IMG/VR virus record: IMGVR_UViG_2778261676_000005
DNA length: 11,071 bases
Reading direction: 5' to 3' (one strand)
Source: a virus
Taxonomy: Duplodnaviria; Heunggongvirae; Uroviricota; Caudoviricetes
Of this stretch, positions 1-8,216 are shown in pieces (position 1 is the stretch's first letter; each line of letters starts with the position of its first letter). Both the position numbers and the translations under genes were made by a program. The notes below the pieces were generated by a model. It was not told the DNA's origin and made no database searches. It saw only the letters and a program-made list of their open reading frames with translations.

Positions 1-1053
1 TTACGGGGTAATGCCAACCGCTGCCGCCACTTTGTCGCCACTTGGCAGCGTTGCCAGAGGATTGAAACGGAGCGCCGTTTCCAGATGATCCGGTGCCAGA
101 TGAGCGTAACGCATAGTCATTTTTATATCGTGATGTCCGAGGATTTTTTGCAAAGCAAGGATATTTCCACCCGACATCATGAAATGCGCCGCAAACGTAT
201 GGCGCAGAACGTGTGTCAGTTGACCGCGAGGGAGCACGATTGACGTTTTTTCCATCACGGATAAAAATTGAAAATAGCAGTCTGTGAAGAAATTGAACCC
301 ATCAAGCGCCATGATCTCTTCATAAAGCTCTTTACTGATAGGGATGCTTCTGTTTTTCTTCCCCTTCGTTCTTACAAAGGTAATTCGGTATTTAGTCACC
401 TGTGATCGGGTAAGGTTTATTGCTTCTCGCCAGCGTGCGCCTGTGCTTAAGCATATCTTGACTACCAGTGCCAGAATTGGGTCCTGACGTTTGCAATCAG
501 CCAGCAGTTCAACAATCTGCTCATGGGTAAGCCATGCCATCTCTTTTTCTGCGATGGTGAATTTTCGCATGTTCTCCAGTGGGTTTGGATACGACCATTC
601 GCCCAGGCGGGATAGTTCGCTAAAAACACTACTTAGATAGCTTTGCTCCAGGTTAATGGTGACCGGGCTTGCTCCTTTCTTCCATTTCTCGCTGAAGTAG
701 ATCTCACCTGTCAGGCGTTTATCTCGATAGTGGGCAAACATTTTAGAGGTGAGATCGGTTGCAAGGGGATTGCCCAGAGCGTCAACCATCAACAGCAATT
801 TATCATAGACATGCTGCCCAGCGGTTAGAGATTTACCATGTAGTTTGAACCATAGCTCAACCACGTCTTTCAGTGTTCGACGATCCACTGATTCTCCCAG
901 CCAGGGCTTTGCTTCGGTTTCTTCCATCGTATGGCGCTCAAAAGCCAGAGCTTCGCCTTTGGTGGCGAATTGTTTACGCACACGACGCCCACTACGTCCG
1001 GCGGGGTAACATTCGCAAAGCCATTTTCCTGTGGTGAGTTTTCGTACTGCCAT
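1..1053 (-). CDS. int: Tyrosine recombinase / phage integrase, P2-186 family
   Basis: The 376-aa ORF resembles P2 integrase along its length, including the C-terminal catalytic region (..HVLRHTFAAHFMMSGGNILALQKILGH..MTMRYAHL). Start placed at ATG 1053 (MAVRKLTTGKW) because GGAGGG lies 7 nt upstream; the ORF-track start at 1131 is probably an upstream extension. Stop is at 1-3. Confidence 0.9.
   Translation of the reverse strand: MAVRKLTTGKWLCECYPAGRSGRRVRKQFATKGEALAFERHTMEETEAKPWLGESVDRRTLKDVVELWFKLHGKSLTAGQHVYDKLLLMVDALGNPLATDLTSKMFAHYRDKRLTGEIYFSEKWKKGASPVTINLEQSYLSSVFSELSRLGEWSYPNPLENMRKFTIAEKEMAWLTHEQIVELLADCKRQDPILALVVKICLSTGARWREAINLTRSQVTKYRITFVRTKGKKNRSIPISKELYEEIMALDGFNFFTDCYFQFLSVMEKTSIVLPRGQLTHVLRHTFAAHFMMSGGNILALQKILGHHDIKMTMRYAHLAPDHLETALRFNPLATLPSGDKVAAAVGITP
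19..40. repeat. Left copy of 22-bp direct repeat cgctgccgccaYtttgtcgcca; candidate attL core
   Basis: Matches 8217-8238 at 21 of 22 positions (c versus t at position 12). It lies in the last codons of int; the other copy abuts the ogr stop, where P2-type attP is expected. Confidence 0.6.
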
Positions 1054-1239
1054 AAAAAATGCCCTCCAATAGAGAGCATTTTTACTGTATGTATAACCAG
1101 TGTCAATGTATGAAATCCTGCGACCATACATCTCACTGAAGCCATAATGAAGTTGGCTATTTTTTGCTATGTGAGTATGTGACTTTTGCGGTTAGCCTGC
1201 GGCTCATTGTTATATTAGGCGTAGATATAAAAGCAAAAT

Positions 1240-1431
1240 TTATCGCGAGTTTTTAGTACAGATTTTTTTTGATTTACTAATAGTTCCATCATTGCAAACG
1301 AACTTTCCATCGGAGGTACAGTGAGAGACACCTCCCTTTTTCCCAGAACAAGGGTAATTTTTAGCATAGGTAGTTAGTGGGTTTAATAACAAAGAGCATG
1401 ATAAAACCACAAAAAATACCTTACCAAGCAT
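1240..1431 (-). CDS. Small secreted cysteine- and lysine-rich protein (63 aa), function unknown
   Basis: Hydrophobic N-terminus with a likely signal-peptidase site after ..TYA; mature part ~40 aa with 4 Cys. Strong SD (GGGAGGAAA) directly after the cI stop, so probably co-translated with cI. Region is visibly AT-rich. Confidence 0.55.
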
Positions 1432-1446
1432 AGTTTCCTCCCGGTA

Positions 1447-2016
1447 TTACCTAACGTACTTAATTGTTAAACTTATAATTTTCCCAATTATTTCAACATC
1501 TTCTATCTTGCACTCGAAGGCTCTGTTTCCACCTTCAACGAAGATTCTTCCACCGGGTAAACGAGTAATGTCGCGGATTGTTATTTCGCCATCAATACTT
1601 ATTACCCATTTACCGTCACGTATATCATCAAATTCTTTATCACAAATAAATTCAGAATTGTTATCTGTGATGACAAAAGGTTTTTTAAACGTAGAGGGTA
1701 GAAATCCCTTATCAAAAATATAAAAACCGTCTTCACGCAAGGCACCATCAGATAATACATATTTAGCAACTTCCATAGTATTTGTATTACCTGAAGTTTG
1801 CTTTGAACCATGTCCGGTTGTGAGCCAATTAAGCGAGGTGCCCGTTTCAAGGGCGCACTGGATTACCCATTCTGCTGGGAATGAGTCACGCATGTAGCGT
1901 GTGGCGAGTGTACTTTTAGAGATTCCTAAATGATCGCACAACGCCTGTCGAGTTTTGAATCCATAAGCTTCTACCATGCGCTCTATAGCGCCTCGTCCGC
2001 CTTTCTCCAAATTCAT
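1447..2016 (-). CDS. cI: CI-type prophage repressor (phage 186 CI family: N-terminal HTH plus C-terminal domain)
   Basis: N-terminus AIERMVEAYGFKTRQALCDHLGISKSTLATRYMRDSFP is typical of the 186 CI HTH domain; ~190 aa as in 186 CI. Divergent from the early operon. ATG 2016 preferred (GGAG 5 nt upstream) over the GTG at 2022 used by the track. Confidence 0.8.
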   Translation of the reverse strand: MNLEKGGRGAIERMVEAYGFKTRQALCDHLGISKSTLATRYMRDSFPAEWVIQCALETGTSLNWLTTGHGSKQTSGNTNTMEVAKYVLSDGALREDGFYIFDKGFLPSTFKKPFVITDNNSEFICDKEFDDIRDGKWVISIDGEITIRDITRLPGGRIFVEGGNRAFECKIEDVEIIGKIISLTIKYVR

Positions 2017-2040
2017 GGTCACTCCAAGTGAACTTTTATC

Positions 2041-2069
2041 TTGACGATTTCACTGTGCGATCGTATGTT
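2041..2069 (+). promoter_or_regulatory. Candidate sigma70 early lytic promoter (pR-like): TTGACG-N17-TATGTT
   Basis: -35 TTGACG at 2041-2046, 17-nt spacer, -10 TATGTT at 2064-2069, pointing at apl/cII. Flanked by inverted hexamers GTGAAC (2030-2035) and GTTCAC (2086-2091) and by two GATC sites. Confidence 0.4.
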
Positions 2070-2912: not shown

Positions 2913-3113
2913 ATGCTGACGAAAGAACCATCATTTGCATCGCTGCTGGTAAAACAAAGTCCGGCAATGCACTACGGTCACGGCTGGATCATGGGTGAGG
3001 ATGGTAAACGCTGGCATCCGTGCCGTTCACAAGATGAATTGCTGGCAGAACTATCTACGAAAAAACGGGGGAACAAATGGCTATTGAAGGCGCTGCGGCG
3101 ACTGTTCCATTAA
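2913..3113 (+). CDS. Small early protein, unknown function (positional equivalent of 186 fil)
   Basis: ATG 2913 preceded by GTGAGGTG; 66 aa; follows cII in the same operon. No motif recognised. Confidence 0.45.
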   Translation: MLTKEPSFASLLVKQSPAMHYGHGWIMGEDGKRWHPCRSQDELLAELSTKKRGNKWLLKALRRLFH

Positions 3114-3418
3114 GACCCGGTGAACGCCTGAATGGACTTAATCATATTGCGGAGTTAAGGGCGAAAGTTTTTGGTTTGAATATTGAGTCAGAGCTTGAGC
3201 GGTTTATTAAAGATATGCGTGATCCTCGGGATATCAATAATGAACAAAATAAACGGGCACTGGCTGCCATATTCTTTATGGCAAAAATTCCAGCTGAACG
3301 TCATAGCATCAGCATTAATGAGCTGACCACTGACGAAAAGCGGGAGTTGATTAAAGCAATGAATCATTTTCGTGCAGTGGTGAGCTTATTTCCCAGACGG
3401 CTAACCATGCCGAATTAA
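3077..3418 (+). CDS. Early protein, unknown function (113 aa)
   Basis: ATG 3077 preceded by GGGGGAA; overlaps the upstream ORF by 37 nt in another frame. No motif recognised. Confidence 0.45.
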   Translation: MAIEGAAATVPLRPGERLNGLNHIAELRAKVFGLNIESELERFIKDMRDPRDINNEQNKRALAAIFFMAKIPAERHSISINELTTDEKRELIKAMNHFRAVVSLFPRRLTMPN

Positions 3419-3946: not shown

Positions 3947-4800
3947 GCACCATCCTGAAATGGGCAGGAAATAAAACCGCCATAATGTCCGAACTGAAAA
4001 AGCATCTTCCTGCTGGCCCGCGACTGGTTGAACCTTTCGCGGGTTCCTGTGCAGTGATGATGGAGACGGATTATCCCAGCTATCTTGTTGCGGATATTAA
4101 TCCTGATTTAATCAACCTCTATAAAAAGGTTGCTGCTGATTGTGAGGCGTTTATATCTCGTGCCAGAGCTTTATTTGAGGAAGCAAACAGGGAGGTGGCT
4201 TATTACAACATAAGGCAGGAGTTTAATTACTCCACTGAAATTACTGATTTCATGAAAGCGGTATATTTCCTGTATCTCAATCGTCACGGTTACCGTGGTT
4301 TATGTCGCTATAACAAGAGCGGGAATTTCAACATTCCCTACGGTAATTATAAAAATCCGTATTTCCCTGAAAAAGAAATTCGCGCATTTGCAGAAAAAGC
4401 CCAGCGAGCAACGTTTATCTGCGCCAGCTTTGATGAAACGCTGGCGATGTTGAAGGCGGGGGATGTGGTGTATTGCGATCCGCCGTATGACGGTACGTTT
4501 TCCGGCTATCACACTGATGGTTTCACTGAAGATGACCAGTATCACCTGGCATCCGTTCTTGAACATCGGTCATCAGAAGGACATCCGGTCATTGTTTCTA
4601 ACAGTGACACATCCCTGATCCGTTCGTTGTATCGCAATTTCACCCACCACTACATCAAAGCAAAACGCAGCATCGGTGTGGCAGCTGGCGAGGGTAAATC
4701 AGCAACAGAAATCATTGCTGTTTCCGGGCCGCGCTGCTGGGTGGGATTTGATTATTCGCGTGGCGTGGACAGTTCTGCCGTGTACGGAGTACGTGCATGA
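3943..4800 (+). CDS. dam: DNA adenine methyltransferase, Dam-like (N6-adenine class)
   Basis: N-terminus [11 protein letters not shown] and motif FAGSCAV, plus the catalytic DPPY motif ([11 protein letters not shown]). ATG 3943 follows GGAGG; the longer track ORF from 3883 is an upstream extension. Confidence 0.85.
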
Positions 4801-6359
4801 GTCATGCCGATATGAACAACTGCTGCGGCTTTAACGAGTCTGCCGCAGCATTCTCATGGAACAGCCCGAAAAAGGCCATTAACCCTTATCTGGACCCGGC
4901 GGAAGTTGCGCCGGTTTCTGCGCTTTCAAACCTGATCACTCTGTACGCTGCCGATAACGAGCAGGAACAACTGCGCCGCGAGGCACTGAGTGATCAGGTC
5001 TGGGAGCGTTATTTCTTTAATGAATCCCGTGATCCTGTCCAGCGCGAAATGGAGCAGGATAAGCTAATTAGCCGGGCAAAGCTGGCGCATGAGCAGCAGC
5101 GTTTTAATCCGGACATGGTCATTCTGGCGGATGTCAACGCCCAGCCTTCCCATATCAGCAAGCCGCTGATGCAACGTATTGAATACTTCAGCAGCCTGGG
5201 CAGGCCAAAGGCTTATTCCCGCTATTTACGTGAGACGATTAAGCCATGTCTGGAACGACTGGAGCATGTACGCGACAGTCAGCTATCTGCATCTTTTCGC
5301 TTTATGGCAAGCCATGAAGGGCTGGACGGCCTGCTGATCTTGCCTGAAATGAGTCAGGATCAGGTGAAACGCCTGTCCACCCTGGTAGCTGCGCATATGA
5401 GTATGTGCCTTGATGCAGCTTGTGGTGATTTGTATGCCACCGATGACGTTAAGCCAGAAGAAATCCGCAAGACATGGGAAAGGGTGGCAGCAGAAACCCT
5501 GCGACTGGATGTCATCCCACCTGCGTTTGAGCAACTCCGCCGGAAAAGAAACCGCCGTAAACCCGTGCCCTATGAACTCATTCCGGGTTCGCTGGCGCGT
5601 ATGTTGTGCGCCGACTGGTGGTATCGGAAATTATGGAAGATGCGTTGCGAATGGCGGGAAGAGCAGTTGCGCGCTGTCTGCCTGGTCAGCAAAAAAGCAT
5701 CTCCCTATGTCAGCTATGAAGCTGTGATGCATAAACGTGAGCAGCGCCGTAAGTCGCTGGAGTTTTTTCGTTCTCATGAACTGGTGAACGAAGATGGCGA
5801 CACGCTGGATATGGAAGACGTGGTAAACGCCAGCAGCAGCAACCCTGCGCATCGCCGCAATGAGATGATGGCCTGTGTTAAAGGTCTGGAGCTTATCGCG
5901 GAAATGCGCGGTGACTGCGCCGTTTTCTACACCATCACCTGTCCGTCACGTTTCCATTCCACGCTAAATAACGGCAGGCCCAACCCGACTTGGACAAATG
6001 CGACGGTAAGACAAAGCAGTGATTATCTGGTCGGCATGTTTGCTGCATTTCGTAAGGCGATGTACAAAGCCGGATTGCGCTGGTATGGCGTGCGGGTGGC
6101 TGAGCCGCATCATGACGGTACAGTTCACTGGCACCTGTTGTGTTTTATGCGCAAAAAAGATCGCCGCGCCATTACTGCTTTGTTGCGTAAGTTTGCCATT
6201 CGTGAAGACCGTGAGGAGCTGGGTAATAACACAGGACCACGCTTTAAGTCTGAGCTGATACCGGGGAAGTGCAGGCCGTGGAGCTTGTGGTGCGTGGACG
6301 TCACAAAGAAGTGGATTCCGGCGAGTGGAAGACGGGCGAAAGCAACACCACCAAAGTGA
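4797..6359 (+). pseudogene. A: Replication initiation protein gpA (rolling-circle HUH endonuclease), 3'-truncated
   Basis: Resembles P2 gpA through the HUH motif ([16 protein letters not shown]). The ORF then ends after a short tail that is the out-of-frame reading of the tail-tube-like fragment. At 520 aa it is short of the ~760 aa I recall for P2 gpA. Confidence 0.7.
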
Positions 6360-7907: not shown

Positions 7908-7997
7908 TTCTTCGCAATGGAGAACTTTTAAGTTTGCAAAATGGAATAATAAGGTATCATTATTGTGAATTTAGCAAAAATGGGGAGAACTCGAAAA

Positions 7998-8216
7998 ATG
8001 ATGATTTGCCCACTGTGTGGAAGTGCCGCCCATACTCGCAGCAGTTTTCAGGTATCTTCATTGACCAAAGAGCGTTACAACCAGTGCCAGAACATTAACT
8101 GCAGCCATACTTTTGTTACCCATGAAACTTTTGTTCGTTCGATTGCAACGCCAAAAGAGTCAAATCCGGTTCAGCCGCATCCAATGAAATCAGGACAGGT
8201 GGCGCTCTCTCTTTGA
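7998..8216 (+). CDS. ogr: Late gene transcription activator Ogr (zinc finger)
   Basis: MMICPLCGSAAHTRSS...ERYNQCQNINCSHTF...PHPMKSGQ resembles P2 Ogr (Cys4 finger); 72 aa from ATG 7998, as in P2. GGGGAGAA upstream. Confidence 0.9.
   Translation: MMICPLCGSAAHTRSSFQVSSLTKERYNQCQNINCSHTFVTHETFVRSIATPKESNPVQPHPMKSGQVALSL

Follow-up and report, generated by a model that had tools for sequence, protein, structure and literature searches.

The stretch of DNA analysed here, hereafter the window, comprises 11,071 nucleotides (nt) of the IMG/VR record IMGVR_UViG_2778261676_000005 and holds the left end of a 186-like (Peduoviridae) Escherichia coli prophage, entered from the attachment-site side. Between the repressor gene, cI, and the integrase gene, int, lies a short open reading frame (ORF) on the minus strand, with its ATG at 1431 and its TAA stop at 1242-1240, which encodes a precursor of 63 amino acids (aa). 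We find that this ORF is a real gene under purifying selection and a member of the YdcA family; hence we refer to it as the ydcA-like ORF. As it stands directly behind the repressor gene, here and in many related prophages, its product is a good, if unproven, candidate for an envelope or exclusion factor expressed in the lysogen. The ORF, its parts and its two flanking genes are laid out as follows.

1240-1431, minus strand: ydcA-like ORF (ORF list, NF007463, phrog_6000, RefSeq annotation of the identical locus, allele comparison)
1363-1431, minus strand: signal-peptide coding part, residues 1-23 (hydropathy profile, AlphaFold helix at residues 3-15, homologue comparison)
1243-1362, minus strand: mature YdcA domain, 40 aa (invariant and near-invariant columns, AlphaFold, unchanged among E. 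coli alleles)
1437-1442, minus strand: GGGAGG, the Shine-Dalgarno sequence, within the 15-nt gap after the cI stop and separated from the ATG by 5 nt (read from the sequence)
1447-2022, minus strand: cI repressor, 186 type; RefSeq places the ATG at 2016 (189 aa) (Phage_CI_repr 2.8e-33, Phage_CI_C 2e-28)
1-1053, minus strand: int, tyrosine integrase, the next gene downstream of the ydcA-like ORF (Int_N 3.2e-32, Phage_integrase 1.2e-21; 1053 nt in RefSeq)

A conserved gene of the YdcA family

The N-terminal part of the precursor has the layout of a type I signal peptide, with a charged K4, a hydrophobic core at residues 5-16 in which Kyte-Doolittle 9-mer means reach 2.7, an N-P helix breaker, and T-Y-A ahead of the cut, and we infer from this layout a Sec type I signal peptide cleaved after Ala23. 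The predicted mature part, 40 aa and 4.26 kDa with an isoelectric point (pI) of 9.6, contains 8 lysines, 1 arginine and 4 cysteines (C28, C38, C46 and C58), and a fifth cysteine, C12, lies within the signal peptide. In the AlphaFold model, a signal helix is followed by a small beta-hairpin domain (hairpin residues 35-38/44-46), with a pLDDT of 79 overall and 89-91 in the core. The product is predicted to be exported and to carry two disulfides. An earlier reading of the same DNA from its letters alone (hereafter, the original prediction) had described a 63-aa ORF with a signal peptide and a mature part of ~40 aa with four cysteines, and our coordinates and composition agree with it.

The original prediction went on to see in the product a faint resemblance to small secreted cysteine-containing proteins, which understates the case, as membership of the YdcA family is clear. 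The ORF scores 116.1 bits against the NCBIfam model NF007463, over residues 5-63 and with a curated cut-off of 93, and matches phrog_6000 with E=4.6e-34; its product is identical to RefSeq WP_001321204.1, annotated as 'YdcA family protein', and a match to Pfam PF27300 'YdcA' is precomputed for the identical protein cluster. A copy of Pfam-A that predates PF27300 gave just a sub-threshold chance match for the ORF. The family motif, PCSG-KGG-x-HC ... F-(V/I)-C-N-D-G-x-x-S-x-S-K ... C, is present with all four of its cysteines; indeed, every invariant or near-invariant column of alignments of 36 and 20 sequences is kept. Identity to YdcA of E. coli K-12 is 57% over 53 aa, and 64 homologous clusters were found for the ORF. 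Databases already list both the gene and the family, so that the entity itself is not new, with no mention of WP_001321204 found in the literature; YdcA is recorded there as a family to which no function is assigned, and no biochemical function has been assigned to the K-12 copy either.

Two E. coli alleles that diverge by ~8% at the DNA level show 12 synonymous versus 2 non-synonymous differences, a pattern that therefore points to purifying selection on the gene. Both non-synonymous differences fall in the signal peptide, so that the mature part is unchanged despite ~10 synonymous changes. The region of the ORF is carried by 632 of 5426 complete E. coli genomes, roughly one in eight, among them those of two laboratory strains in wide use, ATCC 8739 and NEB Express, the latter of which we take to be a B/BL21-type strain. 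The NEB Express copy sits, like that in the window, in a prophage remnant, there between rcdA and the rest of the chromosome.

ydcA as a companion of cI in related phages

Presence among the 186-like relatives, a point that the original prediction had raised, is uneven. In phage 186, cI and int overlap and nothing lies in between, so that the ORF is an addition relative to that phage. By contrast, a ydcA allele stands directly after cI in other Escherichia/Klebsiella 186-like prophages, where it is followed by a PDC-S20 KAP NTPase, in a Hafnia prophage, where a 347-aa protein without known function comes next, and in a Yersinia prophage. In Haemophilus phage HP2 (NC_003315, 2920-3102), an unannotated 60-codon ORF of the YdcA family overlaps the cI stop (TAATG), with orf1, which has a signal-peptide-like N-terminus, and then int downstream; the same arrangement is found in phage S2 and in Haemophilus/Pasteurellaceae genomes. 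Across these prophages, the mature YdcA domain remains 70-89% identical, compared to 34-70% for the linked cI and 15-38% for the signal peptide, although S/A-x-A is retained at the cut site in the homologues.

Where ydcA is missing, the interval is occupied by other genes. In the siblings vB_EcoM-813R9 and KP12, it contains PD-Lambda-1 (3e-120), which annotators have labelled 'chromosome segregation ATPase'; in Klebsiella phage 4LV2017, a 349-aa protein without known function, with no ydcA; and in Vibrio phage K139, orf2 and glo, the latter annotated as a periplasmic phage-exclusion protein. The known or candidate defence genes identified in this slot have the following positions.

L005 3091-4767 and L006 3085-4761: PD-Lambda-1 slot genes (PADLOC 3e-120)
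L016/L019 4198-5529: PDC-S20 KAP NTPase slot genes (PADLOC 1e-171)

A defence hotspot between cI and int was described in K139-like phages by Rousset et al. 2022 (PMC9122126), and a 2026 survey placed 8% of defence systems in P2-like elements between integrase and primase (PMC13586616). Judging from the gene contents compared here, the cI-int interval is a cargo position, and ydcA, by the same comparison, keeps its place beside cI throughout many prophages of the Peduoviridae, with the defence cargo varying downstream of it. The suggestion of the original prediction that this slot is the usual one for conversion or exclusion genes is borne out to the extent that PD-Lambda-1, PDC-S20 and K139 glo all occupy it, but ydcA is no unique insertion there.

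Expression signals around the ORF

The cI stop TAA (1449-1447) is followed by TACCGGGAGGAAACT and then by the ATG of the ORF, which leaves a gap of 15 nt with the Shine-Dalgarno sequence inside it; the alleles from Klebsiella and Hafnia, as well as the second one from E. coli, have an AAGGAG- or AAGGAA-type site at the equivalent point. No terminator was predicted between cI and the ORF, and no promoter of the ORF's own rose above chance in a scan that gave 3 promoter-like sites versus 4.1 expected. The original prediction had put the ORF between cI and int, with a strong Shine-Dalgarno sequence directly after the cI stop, both of which we find as well, and had further claimed that its translation is coupled to that of cI. 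This last claim finds no support at this locus: the two genes are separated by the 15-nt gap rather than overlapping, and the ORF has a strong Shine-Dalgarno sequence of its own. The homologue in HP2, unlike the ORF of the window, does overlap the cI stop.

Given its placement directly behind cI, any leftward transcript through cI must include the ORF, and cI and ydcA are presumably co-transcribed in the lysogen, by analogy with phage 186, in whose record pL and pE drive a single lysogenic operon, cI-int-orf69. The product would then presumably be made whenever the prophage repressor is made. Downstream of the ORF, the boundary to int contains one further element.

1055-1083, minus strand: 13-base-pair hairpin with a U-run, directly before the int ATG; its 3' arm holds the int Shine-Dalgarno sequence GGAGGG

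As RNA, this hairpin folds with -17.5 kcal/mol (z = -6.3), and equal stability was reached in 0 of 200 shuffles. The E. coli alleles keep it, as does Klebsiella phage 4LV2017, where C in place of U turns a G-U pair into a G-C pair; it is absent where a KAP NTPase precedes int. The hairpin may be terminator-like or may sequester the Shine-Dalgarno sequence, such that read-through from cI would either terminate there or have the int Shine-Dalgarno sequence hidden, and cI-ydcA would be left as the main lysogenic transcript. Separately, a sigma-70-like site, TTGACA-17-AAAAAT, is present at 1078-1106 on the minus strand, with its -10 element within the 5' arm of the hairpin; an RNA starting there would lack this arm, freeing the int Shine-Dalgarno sequence. 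An Rfam scan of 900-2500 returned no match.

A cryptic prophage with a possibly mosaic left end

Rightward of cI, the window continues with the features of the lysis/lysogeny switch and the early lytic genes.

2041-2069, plus strand: pR-like sigma-70 promoter TTGACG-17-TATGTT, pointing away from cI (consensus scan; analogy with the pR/pL/pE layout of phage 186)
2142-2363, plus strand: apl/cox-like gene (RefSeq annotation; order as in phage 186)
2396-2905, plus strand: cII (Phage_CP76 3.4e-42; RefSeq annotation)

By analogy with phage 186, the promoter at 2041-2069 would mark the switch region in which the leftward lysogenic transcript must begin; the leftward pL itself was not located in the window. 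The apl/cox-like gene and cII, which diverge from cI, make up the early lytic operon expected of 186-like phages, in a gene order that matches phage 186, and are followed rightward by fil, DUF5347, DUF2732, a TraR/DksA zinc-finger gene and dam. The window prophage is a cryptic, defective remnant: replication gene A is truncated (4797-6359, 520 aa), only fragments of tail chaperone E and gene D come after it, then an intact ogr (7965-8216), and chromosomal ybjL, ybjM and grxA start at ~8450. Intact in this remnant are int, ydcA, cI, apl and cII. Thus, the lysogen as the setting of expression, assumed in the original prediction, fits the placement of the gene in the repressor operon but has to be modified in that the prophage concerned is a defective, cryptic element.

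The ORF is part of a block of low guanine-plus-cytosine (GC) content (0.32-0.37) at 1100-1800, which covers the ORF (0.355), its downstream spacer and the C-terminal half of cI, as opposed to 0.47-0.51 in int and in the N-terminal part of cI. In a megablast search of isolated phages, the int module alone was matched, in Klebsiella phages, with the similarity ending at ~1112; at the other side, cI residues 1-62 are identical to those of a cI that is otherwise 71% identical. Taken together, the shift in GC content, the end of the Klebsiella similarity and the identity pattern of cI suggest that the block is bounded on either side by a recombination joint.

Distribution and relatives of the YdcA domain

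A profile search of 1.84 billion representative sequences recovered ~332 clusters (at 50% identity) across Proteobacteria, with members mostly of 60-130 aa and some containing two or three tandem domains; a scan of viral contigs returned near-identical E. coli loci alone and added no diversity. Genomic contexts were sampled at one genome per species, which yielded 80 loci. A Peduoviridae cI is located just upstream of ydcA in 9 of these, and 8 betaproteobacterial loci cluster with a repressor of the HTH-S24 type upstream, as checked with Pfam in Comamonas, where the order is repressor, 166-aa ORF and ydcA, with an ogr-like gene nearby. Elsewhere, phages of Moraxella and Acinetobacter carry the domain as a moron among their tail genes, the copy in the Acinetobacter Vieuvirus phages being unannotated, and also on Acinetobacter and Rhizobium plasmids. 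A link to the type VI secretion system (T6SS) appears twice: a Citrobacter plasmid (L015 3926-4327) encodes a 133-aa YdcA-domain protein right after tssE in a T6SS cluster, and in an Enterobacter protein (P0101), the YdcA domain is fused to the T6SS domain VasL. We also considered a link to conjugation, prompted by the UniRef name 'Conjugal transfer protein', and discarded it, as the two plasmid contexts inspected (Acinetobacter and the Citrobacter T6SS plasmid) contain no tra neighbourhood.

A second set of associations involves secreted nucleases. Among metagenomic proteins (P0140, P0205, P0211, P0199), we identified in-frame fusions with the architecture signal peptide-YdcA-linker-nuclease, in which the nuclease is an SNase (two cases), an Endonuclease_NS (two cases) or of the PLD type (one case), each fusion being seen on just 1-3 contigs. 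Moreover, a secreted SNase gene is the immediate, operonic neighbour of ydcA in 7 of the 80 species-level loci. In Brucella pecoris (L122 2932-3616), for instance, ydcA at 2932-3117 is followed by the nuclease gene, and co-directional ydcA-SNase pairs recur in Brucella/Ochrobactrum, Microvirga and other Rhizobiales (L186/L187 1915-3110).

Among proteins of known structure, the sole sequence match in a phmmer search of the PDB was Dis2 (Lpg0823), a component of the Legionella Dot/Icm system (7MUC/7MUD chain AN, E=3e-5), both lobes of which align with YdcA, with part of the score due to the signal peptide. Compared on its own with YdcA proteins, the mature lobe of Dis2 yields 20-26 bits, against a maximum of 14.5 in 100 shuffles. 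Dis2 is also the top match in Foldseek (probability 0.95, E=0.11), where a search of viral structures gave nothing below E=0.8, whereas a profile search of the PDB weakened the match (E=0.07). The YdcA domain is probably homologous to the lobes of Dis2, but the ORF is not a Dis2 orthologue and at most a domain-sharing relative, because it consists of a single domain and is flanked by cI and int alone. In the Dot/Icm cap, Dis2 is placed beneath the outer membrane, where it contacts DotC, DotD and DotK; it has five disulfides, was described as having no structural relatives and is dispensable (PMC8486379, PMC12716638). Neither of these two papers mentions YdcA.

A proposed role and its alternatives

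We propose that the ORF would serve as a functional accessory ('moron') gene of the 186-like lysogenic operon. The lysogenic promoters would drive its leftward transcription together with cI, and its own strong ribosome-binding site would serve for translation; Sec would export the 63-aa precursor, and signal peptidase I would cut it after Ala23. Upon oxidation in the periplasm, the 40-residue domain, with a net charge of ~+7, would form two disulfides and adopt a compact mini-fold built on a beta-hairpin. As a module, this domain may bind a polyanion or a part of the envelope: either DNA, to which the nuclease fusions point, or the outer membrane at its inner face together with its lipoprotein complexes, to which Dis2 and the T6SS-linked members point. 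Present constantly and in free form in the lysogen, it could hinder the entry of superinfecting phages or foreign DNA at the envelope, which would be the same task as that of the unrelated periplasmic Glo in K139; both the ligand and the exclusion phenotype are proposals. Envelope-stage exclusion of phage or foreign DNA by the free YdcA product is the role that we rank first, because the slot and the compartment match those of K139 Glo and defence cargo is found next to it, and we advance it tentatively, as a possibility that may well turn out wrong. A wider version of this proposal, that a module binding polyanions or the outer membrane has been wired behind repressors as a soluble barrier in at least three lineages and represents a new class of superinfection exclusion, we regard as unlikely; going by the sequence contexts, the three lineages would be the 186-like phages, the HP2-like phages and the betaproteobacterial P2-like phages with S24 repressors.

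Several considerations weigh against exclusion. Phage exclusion by the YdcA family is a proposal for which no member provides an experimental precedent, and PADLOC-DB v2 contains no family that matches the ORF at E<=0.01. About 80% of the species-level loci are not beside a repressor and are either chromosomal or located on other elements; together with the core ydcA of K-12, they point to a general cellular role that phages would have borrowed. Within the prophages, ydcA is fixed behind cI while the defence cargo varies, which is unlike the behaviour of interchangeable defence genes. Associations with nucleases are few, and an anchoring role would explain them equally well as DNA binding. Furthermore, phage DNA normally passes the periplasm in a tail-derived conduit, so that a soluble DNA binder may never meet it. 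Finally, given that the prophage is a remnant, the gene may here be retained for the benefit of the host.

The last point leads to the main rival, which we consider somewhat unlikely, that the gene is one of lysogenic conversion, its prophage copy adding to the role of chromosomal YdcA in keeping the envelope robust under acid or organic-acid stress. The 57% identity to K-12 YdcA and the mostly non-phage, chromosomal contexts of the family members fit such a role, as does the persistence of an intact gene under purifying selection in remnants unable to make phage, both in the window and in NEB Express. Moreover, chromosomal ydcA is reported to be under the control of YdcI and up at pH 5, and its deletion to sensitise E. 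coli W to 300 mM 3-hydroxypropionate (PMC7642389). However, this phenotype stands as one isolated observation with no mechanism attached and is overridden by deletion of yieP (PMC7642389), and the literature searched on E. coli YdcA, this study included, pointed to neither function nor mechanism. The carriers of the prophage already own a chromosomal ydcA, so that it is not obvious what a second copy would add, and the repeated placement behind repressors in three lineages, in a slot for defence and exclusion genes, points instead to a benefit related to phages.

Distinctly less probable is that the product is a nuclease- or DNA-related periplasmic factor that takes no part in exclusion and modulates extracellular DNA, the biofilm matrix or DNA uptake in the lysogen. 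The fusions in which a signal peptide and the YdcA domain precede a nuclease (SNase, Endonuclease_NS or PLD type), the adjacent ydcA-SNase pairs in Rhizobiales, and the strongly basic mature peptide with its conserved lysines are all compatible with this possibility, as are the phage-borne copies in phages of Haemophilus, Moraxella and Acinetobacter, bacteria that are naturally transformable. Yet no nuclease gene lies beside the ORF in the window or in the other Peduoviridae loci, the fusions are rare, at 1-3 contigs each, and the relatives that are not nucleases, namely, Dis2 and the members linked to VasL and T6SS, agree better with a module for anchoring in general.

In principle, the product could be a lipoprotein of the outer membrane by which a phage receptor is masked, in the manner of Cor (phi80/N15) or Llp (T5); receptor blockers expressed by lysogens form a known class. 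Apart from this precedent, the residues V-L-S before Cys12 loosely resemble a lipobox, and one Yersinia homologue has been automatically named 'Lipoprotein' in UniRef. We rejected the lipoprotein reading, which we hold to be very improbable: Cys12 comes after only ~6 hydrophobic residues and lies inside the hydrophobic core, which runs on beyond it, and its column is not conserved, the cysteine being absent from the K-12 YdcA, HP2 and Yersinia alleles and preceded by I/V at -1 in other homologues. In all homologues, an A-x-A-type cut is instead found ~11 residues further, before the invariant PCSG. The shortness and low GC content (0.355) of the ORF, the name 'hypothetical protein' in several records and the lack of annotation in HP2 and the Acinetobacter phages might suggest that the ORF arose by chance in an AT-rich spacer or is a passenger in decay. 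This reading retains next to no probability, since the 12 synonymous against 2 non-synonymous substitutions refute it, and the 70-89% identity of the mature domain across genera versus 34-70% for the neighbouring cI, the ~332 clusters across Proteobacteria and the strong ribosome-binding site argue in the same direction.

We did not find in the literature that ydcA is fixed behind repressors, upstream of a variable defence slot, in several lineages of temperate phages, nor the probable relationship to the lobes of Dis2 or the association with secreted nucleases. Whichever role applies, the links to nucleases and to Dis2 offer starting hypotheses for the YdcA family as a whole, YdcA of K-12 among them. 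Should the exclusion proposal hold, a soluble mechanism acting in the periplasm would join a field in which cytoplasmic defence systems predominate, and the finding would be relevant to phage therapy and to the efficiency of transformation and transduction of carrier strains. If, alternatively, the product is an envelope-stress factor, the gene would be a clean case of lysogenic conversion kept in cryptic prophages. A binding-module barrier, if real, would open a first way into the function of E. coli YdcA and of a supposedly species-specific subunit of a type IV secretion system (T4SS). With a mature part of 40 residues, synthetic production is feasible and the protein is tractable for study.

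Comparison with known systems

Among the closest known systems is YdcA of E. coli K-12 (b1419; PF27300, NF007462/NF007463, PRK10040), which, like the ORF product, consists of a signal peptide and one four-cysteine domain of ~35 aa. Nevertheless, the ORF belongs to a distinct subfamily, as it reaches 68 bits against NF007462, for which the cut-off is 118, and the settings differ: the K-12 gene is chromosomal, between rydC and hokB, whereas the ORF is borne by a prophage behind cI.

Dis2 is exported and disulfide-rich, as is predicted for the ORF product, and each of its lobes displays the pattern C-x-K-x-GG-(I/V)-x-x-C ... (L/F)-VCN-(D/N)-G-x-x-S. Dis2, however, is built of two lobes, with five disulfides and additional cysteines; it is the less basic of the two proteins and belongs to a T4SS as a stoichiometric component (PMC8486379), while the ORF encodes one domain and, unlike Dis2, has no secretion-system neighbours. 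In PMC12716638, Dis2 is treated as specific to Legionellales; the link to YdcA is an inference of the present analysis.

Glo of K139 offers a parallel of a different kind. It is a soluble periplasmic exclusion protein (Nesper et al. 1999, as cited in PMC3952083), and it shares with the ORF product the slot, in an operon PL - cI - orf2 - glo - int, the predicted signal peptide and, through its annotation as a periplasmic exclusion protein, the presumed compartment. Glo has 137 aa and is not rich in cysteine and lysine, and homology between the two was considered and rejected (BLASTP E=0.17, 7/30 identities), so that the analogy is one of position and compartment only. PD-Lambda-1 and PDC-S20, finally, occupy the same interval of the lysogenic operon and presumably share the same constitutive expression; these, however, are large cytoplasmic proteins of the NTPase type that vary from phage to phage, whereas ydcA is tiny, its product is predicted to be exported, and its place beside cI is fixed.

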